From assembly GCA_016788665.1 (NCBI GenBank), contig JAEUSF010000003.1, positions 35,021-99,020 of the forward strand: a stretch of 64,000 nucleotides of DNA, written 5' to 3'. A program made the position numbers and the translations under genes. The notes under the pieces are model-generated. The model was not told the origin of the DNA. It saw only the letters and a list, made by a program, of their open reading frames with translations, and searched no databases. This DNA is from Candidatus Doudnabacteria bacterium (GTDB lineage Bacteria > Patescibacteriota > Doudnabacteria > UBA920). This document shows, in pieces, positions 6,536-49,692 of this stretch; position 1 is the first letter of the stretch, and every line of letters begins with the position of its first letter.

Positions 6536-7054
6536 ATGCATATAAAGTTGGTCAAGCCTTCGGAGAAATATAAAAAGTCATTTCTGCAATCTTTTAAGTC
6601 TCTGTATTTGTTTAATTATCAAGACTTGGATTTGTCATATAAGCAAGTAAATCTAAATTTTAAAGAGTTTTTAAGAACACTGCATAATCAGTCAAATAAG
6701 AAAGCGTTGGCTAAAGGGCGCGTACCTAGTACAACTTATTGGCTTGTTCGGGACTTAAAATATTTAGGCAGTGTTAATATTAGACATTATTTAAACAAAC
6801 ATTTAAAAAGAGTCGGTGGTCATATTGGCTATGAAATTACACTCAAAGAAAGAGGTAAGGGGTACGGCAATGCGATTTTAAAACTGGCATTGAAAAAAGC
6901 TAAACGGCTTGGCATAGACAAAGCTTTACTGACTTGCGATAAAAGTAATATTCCTTCTAAAAAAGTTATTGAATACAATGGCGGCAGGATTATAAAAAGT
7001 TTGTTTAAACAAGGTAAAGCGCCGGAAAAACTACGATACTGGATAAAAGTATAA
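6536..7054 (+). CDS. GNAT family N-acetyltransferase
   Basis: GYEITLKERGKGYGNAILKLALKKAKRLG fits the acetyl-CoA binding motif A. Confidence 0.6.
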   Translation: MHIKLVKPSEKYKKSFLQSFKSLYLFNYQDLDLSYKQVNLNFKEFLRTLHNQSNKKALAKGRVPSTTYWLVRDLKYLGSVNIRHYLNKHLKRVGGHIGYEITLKERGKGYGNAILKLALKKAKRLGIDKALLTCDKSNIPSKKVIEYNGGRIIKSLFKQGKAPEKLRYWIKV

Positions 7055-22018: not shown

Positions 22019-22076
22019 CCCTAAACAAATCCTTCAAACCTCGCTAGGTTAAGAAGGATTTTATGTTGGAGGGAAA

Positions 22077-22583
22077 ATGATTCTGTTTGTCATGCTCTTG
22101 GCAGGTAGTATGCTAGGGGCCACTCTCTCGCTCGGTACGGGGCCGACCATAGAGGTTTCGAACTTCTCGGCCGGGACGTCCGAGTTTAGTGTCCAGGTTT
22201 CGCAGCCTGGGTACAACTTTGCTGGAGTAAAAATCCAGCCGCTTGCACCGGGTCTTGACCTGGTACTGAACTCGGCTACAGTGAACGGCAATGTCGCCAC
22301 CGGCTTTTCGGTGGGTTCTTTGGACGGGGCGAAGTACATAGCCCCGGACTCGGCAACGCTGCTGTTGCCCAACTTCGCTGTTGGGACGGTGGTGTTTAAC
22401 CTCACCGCTACAGGTGCGGTCGAGGGACAGAGCCCAAGCCAGCTCTTTATGGTTTTCTTGCAAAACCAGAACAGCTACGGCTTTACGGCGTATAACACCG
22501 CCGATTCTCCGGAGCCTGCAACCTGGGCGCTCGCAGGAGCTGTGCTCCTGGTGCTTGTGGCACTGGGCAAAAAACCTAGTTAG
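22077..22583 (+). CDS. Secreted protein with signal peptide and C-terminal PEP-CTERM-type sorting signal (SPEPATWALAGAVLLVLVALGKKPS*); GC-rich gene, probably foreign
   Basis: N-terminal hydrophobic signal peptide. C-terminus is PEP + hydrophobic helix + KK, as in exosortase substrates. Gene GC is about 57% against about 39% in the flanks. Confidence 0.55.
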   Translation: MILFVMLLAGSMLGATLSLGTGPTIEVSNFSAGTSEFSVQVSQPGYNFAGVKIQPLAPGLDLVLNSATVNGNVATGFSVGSLDGAKYIAPDSATLLLPNFAVGTVVFNLTATGAVEGQSPSQLFMVFLQNQNSYGFTAYNTADSPEPATWALAGAVLLVLVALGKKPS

Positions 22584-22614
22584 CCTTCCAACTTTTGTTC
22601 GGAGGCTTTTTTAT
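22583..22614 (+). terminator. Rho-independent terminator for the PEP-CTERM gene (GCCTTCC...GGAGGC then TTTTTT)
   Basis: Hairpin followed by a T-run immediately after the stop codon. Confidence 0.5.
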
Positions 22615-22652
22615 TTGCAAAAAAATACGCTGGCAACGGTTGTCGCCAGCGT
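22615..22652 (-). terminator. Rho-independent terminator for the minus-strand gene 22680..23177 (ACGCTGGC / GCCAGCGT 8-bp stem, T-run on the minus strand)
   Basis: Perfect 8-bp stem. The A-run on the plus strand is a T-run on the minus strand. Confidence 0.5.
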
Positions 22653-22679
22653 ACAGAAGTTTCGCGAAGAGGGTCGGTA

Positions 22680-23177
22680 CTACTCTTTGAAGATCGTGGG
22701 ATAGGCCTTTTTGGCCTTTTCCCAAGCGTCGACCAGAACCTTGGGCTCCGGCGACTTGAGAGTGAGATCGGTTTCCCGAATTACGCTCTTGAACCGCTCG
22801 CAGTCTTCGGTCTCGAACGGGAAGGCAGCTCCTTCCTTGCATCCCGACGTGACTTCAATTTGGAGGCTCGTCCGGCTGTCTTCCAGCATCCTTCTTACGA
22901 CTTGGATCACGGTTCTTTGCGAACCGATCATACGGTTGATGCTCTGCAGAACTTCATGGTCTCCGAAGACAAGTCCTTTTTCCAGATCCTGGCCGCTGAC
23001 TTTTAGCTTACTCTGGAAGGTTTGGAGCTTTCCGCTCCATTCTTTGATAACCCGGACTTCGTTCCGGGCCGTCTCCAGCCTCATCTTGCCCATTTGGGCA
23101 AGAGGGTCTTCCTGCCCAAAGGCCGCGGAGGCGGCCAATACCAACACCAACCACAACACGATCATAACGCGTTTCAT
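22680..23177 (-). CDS. GC-rich secreted hypothetical protein (signal peptide MKRVMIVLWLVLVLAASAAFGQ, two Cys)
   Basis: Convergent with the PEP-CTERM gene and of similar elevated GC. Its upstream region carries CTCTTCG..CGAAGAG / TTCGCGAA palindromes. Confidence 0.5.
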   Translation of the reverse strand: MKRVMIVLWLVLVLAASAAFGQEDPLAQMGKMRLETARNEVRVIKEWSGKLQTFQSKLKVSGQDLEKGLVFGDHEVLQSINRMIGSQRTVIQVVRRMLEDSRTSLQIEVTSGCKEGAAFPFETEDCERFKSVIRETDLTLKSPEPKVLVDAWEKAKKAYPTIFKE

Positions 23178-23429
23178 TTGCTCTCTCTTCTGGTAGTAGT
23201 GTCTCTTCGTATTCGCGAAGAGCAGGCTGTGGGCCTTCTAAAAGACCCTAAAACTGCTCTTCGCGAAAAATATAGGCCTCCTTATACTTGAGTGTAATTA
23301 TAGCATATTTAGAATAAAAAGTCAATGTGCTCGTACGTACAAAAAAAACTTATAAACATTGGTGTATATGAACCAGCTTAATATTTTAGATTTGGCTAAA
23401 AATATGGTAAAATTAATAATATTTTTGGC

Positions 23430-38366: not shown

Positions 38367-38442
38367 GCCGGCTTAGCTCATCTGGTAGAGCAGCGGTATC
38401 GTAAACCGCAGGTGGTCGGTTCAAGTCCGACAGCCGGCTCCA
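38367..38442 (+). tRNA. tRNA-Thr (anticodon CGT)
   Basis: Cloverleaf: acceptor GCCGGCT/AGCCGGC, D arm GCTC...GAGC, anticodon stem GCGGT/ACCGC with loop AUCGUAA, T arm GTCGG-TTCAAGT-CCGAC, encoded CCA. Confidence 0.85.
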
Positions 38443-46462: not shown

Positions 46463-47179
46463 ATGAAATTTGAATACAAACCAGTCTCAGATTTAGAAAA
46501 CTTTGGCTGCGAAATATATAGTTTGCTTGTGGAAAACTCTAAGCAAACTTTTTTCGTTGGCGGGACTGTGCGTGATATTTTACTGAAGCGAAACGTAAAA
46601 GATGTTGATATTTCTACTAGCATTAAACCTGAAGTTGTTGCTGAAATTTTAAAAAAGCATTACATAGATTTCAATCAAACATACAAAAATTTAGGAATTA
46701 TTATTGCTTTAAAAGAACAACATGCGATTGCAGTTGCTACGTTTAGGAAAGAAGCCTACTCTAAATCCCGCTATCCTAAAATTACGTTTATACAGGAAGC
46801 AAAAAAAGATAGCGAGAGGAGAGACTTTACTATAAACTCCTTATACTTAAGCTTAAAAAACGGTCAAATATTAGACTTTCATAATGGCCTAGAGGATATA
46901 AAAAAGAAAAAGATTTGTTTTATAGGAGACCCGAAAAAACGCATTACAGATGATCCTCTGAGGATAGTTAGAGCGCTAAGATTTTCTCTAGAATTAAATT
47001 TTAAAATTGAAAATAAAAGTTATCTTGCCATAAAAAATAAGTTTTTAACTTTAGGAACTTTAACTAAAACAAAAATTTTTAGTGAAGTTGAAAAATTAAC
47101 AAACTTAAGTCAAAGAAAAATATTAATTAAGTGCTTAACTAACGAAAAAAATCTTGACAAATATTTCAAAAGCAGATAA
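46463..47179 (+). CDS. tRNA nucleotidyltransferase/poly(A) polymerase family head domain protein (minimal CCA-adding enzyme-like, 238 aa)
   Basis: FFVGGTVRDILL...DVDIST nucleotidyltransferase motif and the RRDFTINS motif. Confidence 0.7.
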   Translation: MKFEYKPVSDLENFGCEIYSLLVENSKQTFFVGGTVRDILLKRNVKDVDISTSIKPEVVAEILKKHYIDFNQTYKNLGIIIALKEQHAIAVATFRKEAYSKSRYPKITFIQEAKKDSERRDFTINSLYLSLKNGQILDFHNGLEDIKKKKICFIGDPKKRITDDPLRIVRALRFSLELNFKIENKSYLAIKNKFLTLGTLTKTKIFSEVEKLTNLSQRKILIKCLTNEKNLDKYFKSR

Positions 47180-47342
47180 AATAAATTTGTTGAACTAAAA
47201 AACTGTATTAGAAACCAATTGTAAAAAACAGAAACGTCAGGAGCGGAAATTTTTTTTACTACTAATCCGCATTTATGCGGAAGTAGAAAATTAAGAAAGC
47301 ATTAGGCCAAAATTCAGCATAATGCTTTCAAGGGAGAGCCTC

Positions 47343-47414
47343 ATGGCTGTCAAGAAAAAAGCTAAGAAGAAAGTAGCTAAGAAGAAAACCGCTTCCAAAA
47401 AGAAGCGCAGCTAG
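47343..47414 (+). CDS. Candidate 23-aa Lys/Ala-rich peptide (MAVKKKAKKKVAKKKTASKKKRS) with its own RBS and terminator
   Basis: GGGAGAG SD 5 nt upstream of the ATG. A 10-bp-stem hairpin terminator follows. Upstream leader has perfect palindromes (TCCGCATttATGCGGA, AAGCATTA...TAATGCTT). Confidence 0.3.
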   Translation: MAVKKKAKKKVAKKKTASKKKRS

Positions 47415-47442
47415 TCTTCTTAAAATCCGTTTTACGGAACAT

Positions 47443-47480
47443 AAAGCCGCCCCAAAACAGGGCGGCTTTATGTTGGTTGG
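47443..47480 (+). terminator. Hairpin terminator (AAAGCCGCCC / GGGCGGCTTT, loop CAAAACA) after the small basic ORF
   Basis: Perfect 10-bp stem followed by a U-rich stretch (TATGTTGGTT). Confidence 0.45.
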
Positions 47481-47539
47481 CGCACCTTGCTTTTTAAAAG
47501 CAAGTTTAGTATAATAATCGAAGGTCAATATCAATATAT

Positions 47540-47615
47540 CGCGGGATAGAGCAATTGGCAGCTCGTCAGGCTCATAACCTGAAGGTTCCCGGTTCGAGTC
47601 CGGGTCCCGCAACCA
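47540..47615 (+). tRNA. Initiator tRNA-fMet (anticodon CAT)
   Basis: Starts CGCGGGA and ends TCCCGCAACCA, with the C1:A72 mismatch typical of bacterial initiators. CUCAUAA anticodon loop. Close to the E. coli tRNA-fMet sequence. Confidence 0.8.
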
Positions 47616-47995
47616 TAAACCATTCGCTAACGCTCAGGTATATGGCGCGGTCATAAGTCGCGTTTTGAGTGTTGCGACCATTTGTTTATATTGGCGAATG
47701 GTTTATGACCTTACTCGGCCCCGTTTTGGCGGGAGAGTGTTTAGGGCATGAAGGCGACAAATATAATAGCAAAATCGTGACAGATTTTTCCCGCTGTCCG
47801 CGGGATTTATTTTGTTCGTAATTACGCGTGGCGGTCACGCTTAACGTGACTGTTGCCGCGCTTAGCGCGGCGGAGTAGCTGAAGTGTTACCCGCCCGAAC
47901 GTACCCCGCCAGAATGAAACTTTCGGGCTAGCGTTCGGTACGGGCGAGGAGCGTGGGACTCATAAGTCACCTAAGTGATCCGGGGTTTCTATAAT

Positions 47996-48029
47996 ATGTT
48001 TTATGCATATGTTTTATGCATATGTTTTA
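47996..48029. repeat. Tandem repeat, 13-bp unit ATGTTTTATGCAT x2.6
   Basis: Read directly (atgttttatgcat atgttttatgcat atgtttta). Confidence 0.8.
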
Positions 48030-48248
48030 AAGAACACTAAAGGAATTCTATATAAAGGATCAACGGATAATTTAGAATAAAGGAGCATAACTCAAAATTA
48101 TTTAAGTCATTCACGAGAGGTAGGGGAGCATGGATACTTGTGTATTTTGAAGAGTTTAACACTAGGCGAGAGGCGGAAATACGAGAAAAGTATTTTAAGT
48201 CTAAAGCTGGGTGGTTCTATTTTAAAAATACGTTACATCTATTATAAT

Positions 48249-48325
48249 GGCGGAGTAGCTCAGTTAGTTAGAGCGTGGGACTCATAAGCCCAAGGTCGGT
48301 GGTGCAATTCCACCCTCCGCTACCA
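48249..48325 (+). tRNA. tRNA-like gene with CAT anticodon (Met or Ile2/lysidine type), atypical T-loop (G at position 55); preceded by TATAAT
   Basis: 77-nt cloverleaf: acceptor GGCGGAG/CTCCGCT (G1:U72 wobble), D arm GCTC-AGTTAGTTA-GAGC, anticodon loop CUCAUAA, T arm GGTGG-TGCAATT-CCACC, CCA encoded. Confidence 0.5.
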
Positions 48326-48334
48326 AAACACTTT

Positions 48335-48388
48335 GGGACTCATAAGTCACTTAAGTGATCGGTGGTGCAATTCCACCCTCCGCTACCA
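48335..48388 (+). repeat. Partial tandem copy of the tRNA(CAT)-like gene: the anticodon-loop segment and the T arm/acceptor 3' end, interrupted by the palindrome GTCACTTAAGTGAT
   Basis: GGGACTCATAAG then TCACTTAAGTGATC then GGTGGTGCAATTCCACCCTCCGCTACCA. Identical to the 48249 gene except for the insert. Confidence 0.55.
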
Positions 48389-48498
48389 GTCTTCGCTAAA
48401 GCCACGGCTGGCTATGGCCAGCAATATCTAAAGAAGGCTGTCCGACGAAGTCACCTAAGTGACGAAGTTGGACATACATTTAGTCTATAAATTTACAT

Positions 48499-48575
48499 GG
48501 GACCGTAGCTCAATTGGTTAGAGCACTCGCCTGTCACGCGAGAGGTTACGGGTTCGAGCCCCGCCGGTCCCGCCA
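48499..48575 (+). tRNA. tRNA-Asp (anticodon GTC)
   Basis: Acceptor GGGACCG/CGGTCCC, anticodon stem CTCGC/GCGAG with loop CUGUCAC, T arm ACGGG-TTCGAGC-CCCGC, CCA encoded. Confidence 0.85.
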
Positions 48576-48584
48576 TTAGAAAAT

Positions 48585-48612
48585 GCCTCACCTTTATGGT
48601 GGGGCTTTTTCT
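48585..48612 (+). terminator. Rho-independent terminator after tRNA-Asp (GCCTCACC / GGTGGGGC then TTTTT)
   Basis: 8-bp stem including one G-U pair, then a T-run. Confidence 0.5.
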
Positions 48613-48664
48613 ATGGTTAGAGTGGGCGAAAAGTTTATCCGCCGTAGTTTTAGCGAAGGAGGAA

Positions 48665-48683
48665 GCCCCGCCGGTCCCGCCAG
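48665..48683 (+). repeat. 19-nt direct repeat of the tRNA-Asp 3' end (AGCCCCGCCGGTCCCGCCA), 90 bp downstream of the gene; att-like scar
   Basis: Exact copy of tRNA positions 48557-48575. Confidence 0.6.
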
Positions 48684-48825
48684 TAGAAAACCATCTTGCT
48701 TAAGATGGTTATTAGGGCCTAGGCAGGTTAGAGCTGCGGCTGAAACTATATGCTAAAATTATCCTATCAGCCCAAGAGAAAATCAAAGCCTTAAAAGAAG
48801 TAGCTAAAATATTAAGATAAAACTT

Positions 48826-49692
48826 ATGGTTGAGTATAAAAAGGGAGTCGGAATAAATTTTACAGACATACTAAAAGAAAAGCGTATTGAAAAGCAAGAA
48901 ACAATGGCCATACCCGAAACTCTTTCAGGTCAAGAGGTGGCAGATTTATTTCAAAAGGCTTACGCTGAACTAACTTTGAATATCAAGGAGCATTTAGTTG
49001 ATTCCAATGTCATACTAACTACAGCAGGATTGAAGGCTCAAACCGAATTTTTTGTAGATATAAAAGGCGAGGAGGATGCTGCCGGAGTGCAAGTACAGGT
49101 TAACAAACTAAATGAACTATTCAAGATACTAAATCCAGAGATTAAATTTTCTATGGTAAAAAAATCTATAAGTCCGCCTCGTAGAGGTAAGCGACAAATG
49201 GTTTCTATACAGAGCTTATTAGGTGCTGAAAGAGTTAGTAAAATCAGCAAAATTCCTGGCGTTATCCCTTTTGATAAAAGTACTGGTTGGGACGGTTTTG
49301 TTAAATGGCGTAGTAGCATTGCGAAAAACTTTGGTGCTCTCCAAGAAACAGGAACAAAACCTTTTGTAGACGACGAAGCATATACAAATGTATTAGCTGG
49401 CTTAATGAAAGGTTATCCTGATACAGCGATTTACGATTTTGCTGAGTGGTTCCCAACTGACAGATCAAAAGGTATGCAAGATTCGGAAATCCCATTTACT
49501 GGCTTATATTCAGAAGCTGAACCCAATTACGATTTTTACCCAGAACACGCTAATAATCCCGATATTAAAGAAAATATACAGCAAGCAGGTAAAATTTTGC
49601 AGCAATTTTACGAAAGTGATTGGCATAAACAAATAACGCAGGAATTACAGCATCATAAACGAAACGATAGCTGGCAAGTAGGAGGTGGGTAA
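48826..49692 (+). CDS. Hypothetical protein (288 aa)
   Basis: Long ORF downstream of the tRNA hotspot, no recognisable motif. Confidence 0.45.
   Translation: MVEYKKGVGINFTDILKEKRIEKQETMAIPETLSGQEVADLFQKAYAELTLNIKEHLVDSNVILTTAGLKAQTEFFVDIKGEEDAAGVQVQVNKLNELFKILNPEIKFSMVKKSISPPRRGKRQMVSIQSLLGAERVSKISKIPGVIPFDKSTGWDGFVKWRSSIAKNFGALQETGTKPFVDDEAYTNVLAGLMKGYPDTAIYDFAEWFPTDRSKGMQDSEIPFTGLYSEAEPNYDFYPEHANNPDIKENIQQAGKILQQFYESDWHKQITQELQHHKRNDSWQVGGG

Follow-up and report, generated by a model that had tools for sequence, protein, structure and literature searches.

The region at 47617-47990 of the window analysed here (the whole 64,000-nt stretch of contig JAEUSF010000003.1 from a Candidatus Doudnabacteria bacterium) raises the question of how two exact pieces of a transfer RNA (tRNA) gene came to lie apart from one another, shortly upstream of an intact copy of that same gene. 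As the first-pass annotation of this DNA had stated, the region is GC-rich (0.516, against 0.391 for the whole window) and poor in open reading frames (ORFs), the only ones within it being two that overlap, of 50 aa. It contains the pieces GGCGGAGTAGCT (47869-47880) and GAGCGTGGGACTCATAAG (47949-47966), which match positions 1-12 and 23-40 of tRNA-Met exactly and are collinear and exactly 68 nt apart. Since an exact 18-mer is expected about 2e-6 times by chance in 64 kb, counting both strands, the match of GAGCGTGGGACTCATAAG is not fortuitous. A disrupted tRNA(CAT) gene, an intron-containing or split one, and a free-standing structured RNA had all been entertained. The exact collinear pieces bear out the disrupted copy, and we propose that the DNA from 47869 onward is probably a dead partial copy of tRNA-Met, representing hairpin-interrupted debris of a selfish cassette that carries a small GIY-YIG nuclease gene and resides at tRNA genes.

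A partial tRNA-Met copy interrupted by a hairpin

The stretch is part of a tRNA cluster located downstream of the ATP synthase operon and of a 238-aa gene resembling a CCA-adding enzyme. ARAGORN and Rfam agree on three intact tRNAs in this cluster (its features are all given on the + strand): an initiator-type tRNA-Met(CAT) at 47540-47615 (Rfam tRNA, 63.6 bits), hereafter tRNA-fMet, which forms the left boundary of the stretch; the functional tRNA-Met(CAT) at 48249-48325 (also 63.6 bits); and tRNA-Asp(GTC) at 48499-48575. A protein search with the 238-aa gene yielded relatives at 74% identity (locus L016; loci used for comparison carry the prefix L) and at 64% identity, to which the window was mapped by local BLAST. 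L016 is fully syntenic, from the ATP synthase operon and CCA enzyme through the tRNA cluster to the genes for a glycosyltransferase, HSP20 and RmuC, and its tRNA-Met is identical to that at 48249-48325; the exons of tRNA-fMet are likewise identical in L001 and L016. By comparison with L016, the region at 47617-47990 is best read as a composite of three parts: a spacer, a tRNA-Met leader and a tRNA-Met remnant.

The remnant (47869-47989) is, to judge from its sequence, a non-functional 5' copy of tRNA-Met, for which we use the term ghost. It begins, at the site that corresponds to the first position of the intact tRNA-Met in L016, with positions 1-12 of the tRNA (47869-47880, identical to 48249-48260), which comprise the 5' acceptor strand and the start of the D stem. 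These are followed by a decayed D loop (47881-47889; GAAGTGTTA, compared with CAGTTAGTTA in the intact tRNA), by a 59-nt GC-rich hairpin CCCGCCCGAACG...CGTTCGGTACGGGCGAG (47890-47948) inserted at the junction of the ghost D loop and D stem, and then by positions 23-40 (47949-47966, identical to 48271-48288), which comprise the 3' strand of the D stem, the 5' strand of the anticodon stem and the CAT loop. What had been described as a 68-nt structured insert therefore does separate the two pieces, although it really consists of nine nucleotides of decayed D loop and the 59-nt hairpin, whose stem is formed by the CCGAACG/CGTTCGG pair recognized earlier. The variable loop is replaced by a junction hairpin, GTCAC-CTAA-GTGAT, and then TCCGGGGT (together 47966-47989); the latter (47979-47986) is a remnant of the T-stem start, beyond which tRNA homology stops.

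Model-based searches point away from a functional product of this DNA. An Rfam scan, as had been advised at first pass, was run on the window at gathering scores and on 47300-48800 at E <= 10, and placed no family in the stretch: neither RNase P nor tmRNA (both already thought absent, and the latter also sought with ARAGORN), nor 6S, signal recognition particle or intron families. The sole match there at E <= 10 was anti-hemB at 13.9 bits, far under its gathering score of 49.5 bits. The Rfam tRNA model had no match within 47617-47990 at E <= 10, and ARAGORN called no tRNA or tmRNA there. Given that neither a tRNA nor an intron model matches, and that the copy is missing a contiguous T arm and 3' acceptor strand, the reading as a functional tRNA, whether split or intron-containing, is not upheld; nor is that as a free-standing structured RNA gene, the relevant DNA consisting instead of leader and ghost. 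Two narrower candidates were also rejected, namely a short intron in the 68-nt insert, which matches no model and is too short, and a tmRNA-like gene, sought through a tag-like ORF (ALSAAE*) and a 5' end resembling that of a tRNA, for which a T arm and an acceptor partner are lacking. The fallback offered at the outset, decay debris, came nearer the truth, with the reservation that this debris is patterned, and resembles that of a recurrent selfish cassette.

A GIY-YIG pseudogene abutting the intact tRNA-Met

Between the ghost and the functional tRNA lies a GIY-YIG pseudogene of the UPF0213/Slx1-like type (48009-48247; about 81 codons), revealed by three-frame translation. It reads MFYAYVLKNTKGILYKGSTDNLE in one frame and, after a single frameshift near 48078, continues as RIKEHNSKLFKSFTRGRGAWILVYFEEFNTRREAEIREKYFKSKAGWFYFKNTLHLL in the next; its stop codon, TAA at 48245-48247, ends 1 nt before the intact tRNA-Met. 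Because the ORF is frameshifted, the element in the window would be a decaying relic. Once its frame is repaired, the product matches Pfam PF01541 (57 bits, E = 1.9e-15), the PDB entries 1YWL (E = 2.5e-11) and 1ZG2 (E = 3e-11) and the SLX1 homologue 7WME (E = 1.2e-3), and tblastn finds matches to it in L016 and in L009. The NCBIfam model for group I intron endonucleases gave only 17.8-22.9 bits, against a cut-off of 56. A 13-nt tandem repeat, ATATGTTTTATGC, extends over the ORF start in 2.8 copies (47994-48032) and encodes MFYAYVL twice, in two frames.

A strong match to a sigma-70-like promoter (TTTAAA-16-TATAAT, 10/12) is also present at 48221-48248, ending at the base that precedes position 1 of tRNA-Met. 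Boxes of a comparable -10-like kind adjoin other tRNAs that follow GIY-YIG ORFs (L026, L009 and L063), and in all four cases transcription from them would begin inside the tRNA or at its very start.

The relatives differ in what occupies this cluster. The cassette site is tRNA-Met in the window and tRNA-fMet in L016, and neither of these in L001 or L018. In L016 the ORF homologue, carrying one in-frame TAA, comes after tRNA-fMet and is followed by a piece resembling an anticodon loop, a hairpin of the TCCGCC-CAG-GCGGAT type and a 30-nt copy of the tRNA-fMet 3' end. In L001 (6138-6989), L018 and L020, the relatives at 64% identity, a group I intron (RF00028, 65 bits) bearing a 149-aa PD-(D/E)XK_5 (PF11645) ORF interrupts tRNA-fMet within the anticodon loop; the RF00028 model has no match in the stretch, and the intron is missing from both the window and L016. 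Three related genomes therefore have three different selfish occupants of one tRNA cluster.

Recurrence at unrelated tRNA genes

The arrangement seen in the window recurs well outside this lineage. In L009, an unrelated Patescibacteria locus, 22 nt of tRNA-Ile are followed by a 78-nt GC-rich double hairpin, by GAGCG-CAAG, where the tRNA sequence resumes, and by an intact GIY-YIG ORF, with an intact tRNA-Ile 10 nt further on. A profile scan of metagenome contigs with a three-ORF alignment gave at least 411 confirmed relatives, the best 80 of which were taken for analysis by tblastn and ARAGORN. With the window, L009 and L016 included, 38 of 84 ORFs lie within 260 nt of a tRNA, and 37 of these 38 share a strand with their nearest tRNA. 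The one exception is a decayed copy of the L076 ORF whose nearest tRNA is opposite in orientation, the same-strand tRNA-Leu(caa) of its tandem array lying downstream. The neighbouring tRNAs represent twelve identities (Leu, Asn, Arg, Ser, Gln, Cys, Thr, Trp, Phe, Met, Asp and Ile), and in most loci having the ORF followed by the tRNA the two are separated by 0-40 nt.

Ghosts were sought in these loci by exact-match listing and by a gap-tolerant chain alignment. Of the 20 metagenomic loci whose ORF stops 0-100 nt short of a tRNA, about 18 have a 5' ghost of that same tRNA upstream of the ORF, so that ghost, GC-rich hairpin, ORF and intact tRNA follow one another on one strand, for ten tRNA identities besides Met. 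Chain scores of loci with their own tRNA range up to 81, compared with a mean of 21.6 (standard deviation 5.6; 99th percentile 39) in a control of mismatched tRNAs and loci; 11 of the 20 exceed the 99th percentile of that control and 14 exceed the 95th. True ghosts of low score, consisting of a 12-nt tRNA start with a 30-nt double hairpin, were recognized by eye. Tandem units of ghost, hairpin and ORF occur in L026 and L076, and clear 3' ghosts with hairpins after the ORF in L016, L022 and L037.

Most ghosts are interrupted by a GC-rich palindrome without loss of tRNA bases, as is documented by 12 loci of the ORF-then-tRNA type. The hairpin measures 20 nt in L026 (CCTGCCTGCCGGCAGGCAGG), 19 nt in L045, 41 nt in L023 and 28 nt in L095 and L100, while L035, L049, L053, L058, L063, L070 and L081 have 30-nt double hairpins (for example TCCGCCCAAGGCGGA with CCGGCCTAGGGCCGG). 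Insertion points fall at tRNA positions 10/11, 12/13, 16/17, 20-22 and 31-38, and at 67/68 in one 3' ghost, many of them in loops. The sequence of a ghost is that of the local tRNA; the type of its hairpin is that of the ORF lineage, across tRNA types. Thus the window, at tRNA-Met, and L022, which has the closest ORF relative but resides at tRNA-Leu, share a CCCGCCCGAMCG...CGTTCGG...GGGCG hairpin, the L022 form (CCCGCCCGACCG...CGTTCGGGCGGG) being related to the 59-nt hairpin of the window, and a CCTGCC...GGCAGG hairpin is common to L026 (tRNA-Arg), L076 (tRNA-Leu) and L045 (tRNA-Leu). In a neighbour-joining tree, the ORFs of the window, L022 and L016 belong to one clade, 24 of whose 31 members touch a tRNA. 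A search of 2.9 million viral contigs returned a single ORF match.

Two further loci merit mention beside these. In L078 (1363-2126) an ORF of the tRNA-linked clade is followed, about 120 nt further on, by a 16S rRNA gene. L048 (1300-1500 and 2430-2620) has two ORFs for which no tRNA was called; each comes after a fragment resembling a tRNA 3' end, TTCGAA-CGTAGACC-GCTATCCCC, and GC hairpins.

Ghosts lacking an ORF, and the hairpins they share

Further tRNA remnants are present downstream in the same cluster. A 3' ghost of tRNA-Met without an ORF, at 48334-48388 (chain score 72.9), comprises positions 28-40, the hairpin TCACTTAAGTGA in place of 41-47, and then 48-77. Its beginning forms, with the 5' ghost, a 33-nt direct repeat (47954-47986 and 48334-48366; 91%). 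L016 has a tRNA-Met 3' ghost with the same boundaries (6832-6889) in which the hairpin is instead TCCGCC-TCA-GGCGGA. A 3' ghost of tRNA-Asp (48615-48682; chain score 38.2) contains GAAAAGTTTA, a TCCGCC...GGAGGA hairpin and the last 19 nt of tRNA-Asp, and two 3' ghosts of the tRNA-Asp type in L016 carry the hairpin TCCGCC-TCT-GGCGGA.

The motif GTCACYTAAGTGA has three sites in the window, all within the tRNA cluster, where 0.06 would be expected; being palindromic, it gives five matches over both strands. The third copy, GTCACCTAAGTGAC, is in a hairpin upstream of tRNA-Asp (48436-48472; z = -2.2), flanked by GAA/GAA internal loops. In L016, TCCGCC-NNN-GGCGGA likewise occurs three times. The short hairpins look homogenized inside each genome, the tRNA-Met 3' ghost carrying the hairpin of its own genome. 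A window-wide search for strict GC hairpins found a local cluster at 47.8-48.4 kb, of moderate enrichment, and a second at 22.5-23.1 kb.

An 18-nt inverted repeat (48391-48408 and 48641-48658; 89% complementary, arms 232 nt apart) encloses tRNA-Asp, its terminator and part of the 3' ghost, one arm lying within the hairpin of the tRNA-Asp ghost.

The native leader of tRNA-Met and the adjoining spacer

The DNA at 47752-47868, which opens the right two-thirds of the stretch, appears from its conservation to be the native upstream leader of the tRNA-Met gene, complete with a -10-like box, a terminator- or attenuator-like hairpin and a GC-rich double hairpin. Window 47752-47880 is 93% identical to L016 6638-6764 over 129 nt (local BLAST), and in L016 the leader, with both GC hairpins, runs directly into an intact tRNA-Met; we therefore take 47869 to be the ancestral start of tRNA-Met. 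The conserved upstream element (47752-47815) has a TATAAT box at 47762-47767 and then two overlapping hairpins: in 47762-47815, GTGACAG..CTGTC overlaps a CCCGC-TGTCC-GCGGG hairpin followed by a T run, the two being mutually exclusive, and a terminator-like match is found at 47789-47805. The element is 93% identical in L016 and 81-85% identical in L001 and L017-L020, which also retain the leader core AAAATCGTGACAGnTTTTTCCnnCTGTnnGnnGG and the T run, and its stem shows compensatory changes among three lineages (CCCGC/GCGGG, CCTGC/GCAGG and CCCTC/GAGGG). It looks like a terminator or attenuator preceding the tRNA gene.

The GC-rich double hairpin (47816-47871) overlaps position 1 of the ancestral tRNA-Met by 3 nt, differs in L016 at only a few scattered positions, and is missing from L001 and L018. 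Its two hairpins, GTCACG-cttaa-CGTGAC (47834-47850) and GCCGCGC-tta-GCGCGGC (47855-47871), were correctly identified at first pass and are non-random (z = -4.1 for the DNA fold of 47826-47872); they are not, as had been supposed, part of the tRNA fragment and, given their position in L016, belong to the tRNA-Met 5' leader. The fold of the whole region is modestly better than that of shuffled sequences (z = -3.7 on the + strand and -3.8 on the - strand).

The remaining part of the stretch is a spacer specific to the lineage (47616-47751), which contains a long hairpin. The inverted repeat ACCATTCGC/GCGAATGGT noted there earlier is real, and longer than was stated, with 17-nt arms (47614-47630 and 47691-47707) that are 94% complementary. 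The spacer has no counterpart at the same position in L016 and no other homologue among 101 loci, apart from its first ~40 nt, which match L016 6880-6927 at 76% by local BLAST, a module placed after the 3' ghost of tRNA-Met, at a different tRNA. A search for ghost tRNAs in 47616-47751, and in the flanks of tRNA-Thr (at 38367, a further ARAGORN tRNA elsewhere in the window), gave scores at noise level, those for 47616-47751 being 16-17.

Weighing the interpretation

Several observations weigh against a cassette as the source of this debris. The left third of the stretch (47616-47751) falls outside the model altogether. The 4-22 nt of locally derived tRNA sequence found between hairpin and ORF are awkward, fitting no single-insertion model neatly. 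About half of the sampled GIY-YIG homologues, mainly those of the other clade, do not lie beside tRNAs, and the tRNA-Gln and tRNA-Phe neighbours of other-clade ORFs showed no ghosts. When 40 loci without a tRNA were searched with Rfam, the yield was a single tmRNA (670 nt away), the start of one 16S rRNA and one weak tRNA; because so few RNA genes occur there, the association is one of tRNAs with a single clade and not with all homologues. The ORFs, mostly 68-102 aa, consist of the catalytic domain alone, lacking the accessory DNA-binding domain of the I-TevI/Seg type, which leaves recognition of a tRNA gene unexplained. Both ORFs of the Doudnabacteria lineage are damaged, by a frameshift in the window and by an in-frame TAA in L016, damage that may itself be an assembly error of metagenome-assembled genomes. 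Finally, nuclease activity and mobility are themselves inferred from homology and distribution.

Could the hairpins instead be autonomous palindromes, similar to miniature inverted-repeat transposable elements, that insert into any dispensable DNA and find tolerant sites in duplicated tRNA fragments, with the ORF a mere neighbour and the ghosts arising by tandem tRNA duplication and decay? Such elements would account for the hairpin-bearing ghosts without an ORF (48334-48388 and 48615-48682 in the window, 6832-6889 in L016), for the homogenization of hairpins in each genome and for the different hairpins at one ghost site in the window and L016, and they have a precedent in the mobile GC-rich hairpin elements of mitochondrial genomes (PMC4478555, PMC2800124). 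They would not predict that in about 18 of 20 ORF-then-tRNA loci ghost and hairpin should immediately flank the ORF on the side away from the tRNA, or that hairpin type should track the ORF lineage across different tRNAs; moreover, same-strand orientation in 37 of 38 cases, and abutment within 0-40 nt, are not expected of unrelated neighbours. We regard this explanation as unlikely. Somewhat less probable again is that ghost and hairpin are part of a functional RNA under selection in its own right, such as a structured 5' untranslated region (UTR), a processing signal or a tRNA-like decoy. The persistence of hairpin character despite variable sequence is in keeping with that idea, as are the location of hairpins where a tRNA tolerates extra arms (the D loop, variable region, and anticodon and T loops), the co-orientation of ORF and tRNA, which would place the ghost in a 5' UTR, and a fold of 47816-47990 that surpasses shuffled sequences (z = -2.8). 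Against these stand the lack of a conserved sequence or common secondary structure beyond the GC palindrome, the equal folding of both strands, as for a DNA palindrome, the wide variation of insertion positions, and the failure to match any Rfam family.

Two other accounts can be given little credence. tRNA genes are common integration sites, and the tRNA 3' ends that recur as direct repeats beyond tRNA-Met and tRNA-Asp do resemble classical att duplications, so that the ghosts might be attL/attR scars of integrase islands since deleted, with the GIY-YIG ORF as leftover cargo. No recombinase is nearby, however; the flanks are formed by the ATP synthase operon, the CCA-adding enzyme, the glycosyltransferase, HSP20 and RmuC, only 0-380 bp separate the repeats, and the neighbouring genes are housekeeping ones or have no Pfam match. 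Hairpin-interrupted 5' ghosts upstream of a tRNA are not leftovers of the integrase type, and a compact architecture of about 300-400 bp recurs in some 18 unrelated loci, all of which makes such an origin very improbable. Scarcely credible is a tRNA split between 47869-47978 and 48334-48388, to be joined in trans through self-complementary TCACYTAAGTGA tails, or one containing a 68-nt intron. The two pieces do jointly cover positions 1-77, and both carry a near-palindromic 12-mer, 11 of whose 12 positions could pair from one molecule to another. Yet an intact and identical tRNA-Met lies between them, 380 nt downstream of the ghost start; instead of meeting end to end, they overlap as a direct repeat that duplicates positions 28-40; the 5' piece has a decayed D loop; there is no match to any intron model; and L016 and L009 have only one of the two pieces. 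Split tRNAs, moreover, depend on an archaeal bulge-helix-bulge (BHB) splicing endonuclease system that is not known from bacteria.

A possible route of propagation

The cassette that we favour as the source of the ghost would consist of a GC-rich palindromic hairpin and a GIY-YIG gene of about 80 codons, established between the leader and the functional tRNA, the ghost having been left upstream when the cassette settled. Its nuclease may break the DNA of a tRNA gene by reading DNA structure rather than a long sequence, a mode of recognition that we suspect because the catalytic domain is bare, belongs to the Slx1-like branch and is associated with many different tRNAs. Repair of the break by copying a cassette-bearing template could then place the ORF directly 5' (or 3') of an intact tRNA, with a partial duplicate of that tRNA on the other side. 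This homing-like route is favoured since SegB, the closest characterized system, is a GIY-YIG enzyme of a tRNA cluster. The hairpin, moving with the ORF lineage, would interrupt the ghost; plausibly it destroys the target of the nuclease, or splits a direct repeat that might otherwise delete the cassette. A second reason lies in the strict co-orientation and, in most ORF-then-tRNA loci, abutment within 0-40 nt, which suggest that the ORF probably owes its expression to read-through transcription starting at the tRNA promoter.

The outcome for the locus itself is deflationary: it appears to hold no split tRNA or new RNA gene, only a conserved tRNA leader and the relic of a cassette. More interest attaches to the family, in which a nuclease domain of about 80 aa is co-oriented with tRNAs of a dozen identities, and accompanied by a hairpin-interrupted copy of the same tRNA. 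If indeed mobile, it would provide a compact model of structure-guided targeting of tRNA genes and a role for part of the uncharacterized UPF0213 family, and would explain many of the "pseudo-tRNA" fragments and GC-rich hairpins that confuse the annotation of tRNA clusters in the candidate phyla radiation (CPR).

Other features of the window

Several features near the cluster, or elsewhere in the window, are recorded here in their own right. The 238-aa gene (46463-47179), annotated as "CCA tRNA nucleotidyltransferase", is limited to the PolyA_pol head domain (PF01743), and stands directly upstream of the tRNA cluster in all syntenic relatives. Between it and tRNA-fMet, L016 and L001 as well as the window keep a tiny lysine-rich ORF, MAVKKKAKKKVAKKKTASKKKRS (47344-47415), with a hairpin-containing leader (from about 47240) and a strong terminator. 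On the other side, between the tRNA-Asp ghost and a conserved 142-aa gene, a 288-aa ORF without a Pfam match (48826-49692) occupies a position that is empty in L016 and that in L018 holds a 311-aa, unrelated-looking ORF (E = 0.018, not convincing); these differences between relatives suggest variable cargo beside the tRNA cluster.

A segment of about 1.2 kb (22050-23250), between an amidohydrolase gene and a MurD-like ligase gene, has a GC content of 52-57%, against a window mean of 39%. It contains several short GC hairpins and only overlapping ORFs of 100-170 aa on both strands, none with a Pfam match, and Rfam gave no match there at gathering score, nor any above noise at E <= 1. It may represent a large structured RNA or a decayed GC-rich insert.

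Comparison with known systems

Parts of the arrangement proposed here have counterparts in systems already described. The stand-alone UPF0213/Slx1-like proteins (1YWL, EF2693; 1ZG2, BH0048) belong to the same sequence family and share with our ORFs a length of about 80-100 aa and the lack of an accessory domain. They are considered vertically inherited, repair-type proteins of unknown role, and their eukaryotic Slx1-like members are structure-specific nucleases (PMC1564403); tRNA adjacency, ghosts and hairpins are not reported in that survey. In the same bacterial radiation, insertion sequences in CPR rRNA genes encode GIY-YIG proteins, are not introns, and are often situated at the tips or bases of stem-loops (PMC11270868). 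These too are GIY-YIG ORFs in structural RNA genes; there, however, the rRNA gene itself is interrupted, whereas here the insertion lies in a partial duplicate and leaves the functional tRNA intact, and tRNA genes are nowhere mentioned in that report. The tRNA-fMet group I intron of the relatives, with its homing endonuclease, is comparable as a selfish element of the same tRNA cluster, but the 68-nt insert of the window matches no intron model and is far too short for a ribozyme. For the hairpins, a likeness by analogy only is offered by mitochondrial GC clusters, double-hairpin and repetitive hairpin-forming elements, which are mobile, family-like GC palindromes of AT-rich genomes, often near tRNA or rRNA genes (PMC4478555, PMC2800124); they are eukaryotic and organellar, and have no established protein partner.

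A literature search whose coverage left out most subscription journals found no description of hairpin-interrupted tRNA ghosts beside Slx1-like GIY-YIG ORFs. We offer tentatively, as a possibility that we hold at somewhat less than even, that minimal Slx1-like GIY-YIG genes and their GC palindromes make up an undescribed class of mobile element in CPR and other uncultured bacteria, one that colonizes many tRNA genes, in which DNA structure would take the place of a DNA-binding domain and a partial duplicate would keep the tRNA functional.

By analogy, the nearest known parallel to such a cassette appears to be SegB, a free-standing GIY-YIG homing endonuclease encoded in the tRNA gene cluster of phages T4 and T6. 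The site that it recognizes takes in the T-psi-C stem-loop, which is conserved in tRNA genes, and it drives the inheritance of itself and of neighbouring tRNAs; cleavage and recombination generate tandem repeats of tRNA and segB by way of microhomology that the 5' end of the tRNA shares with the 3' end of segB, and the enzyme has recently been linked to amplification of the tRNA locus (PMC2330249; PMC13096335). Both are GIY-YIG genes set among tRNA genes, and the tandem repeats of SegB resemble the ghost-and-ORF units of L026 and L076. On the other hand, SegB comes from phages and has a DNA-binding region of the I-TevI/Seg type at its C terminus, whereas the ORFs considered here encode a bare domain of about 80 aa on bacterial chromosomes, and hairpin-interrupted partial tRNA copies have not been described for SegB elements. 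With these differences in mind, the cassette may best be viewed as a bacterial-chromosome counterpart to the phage SegB system.

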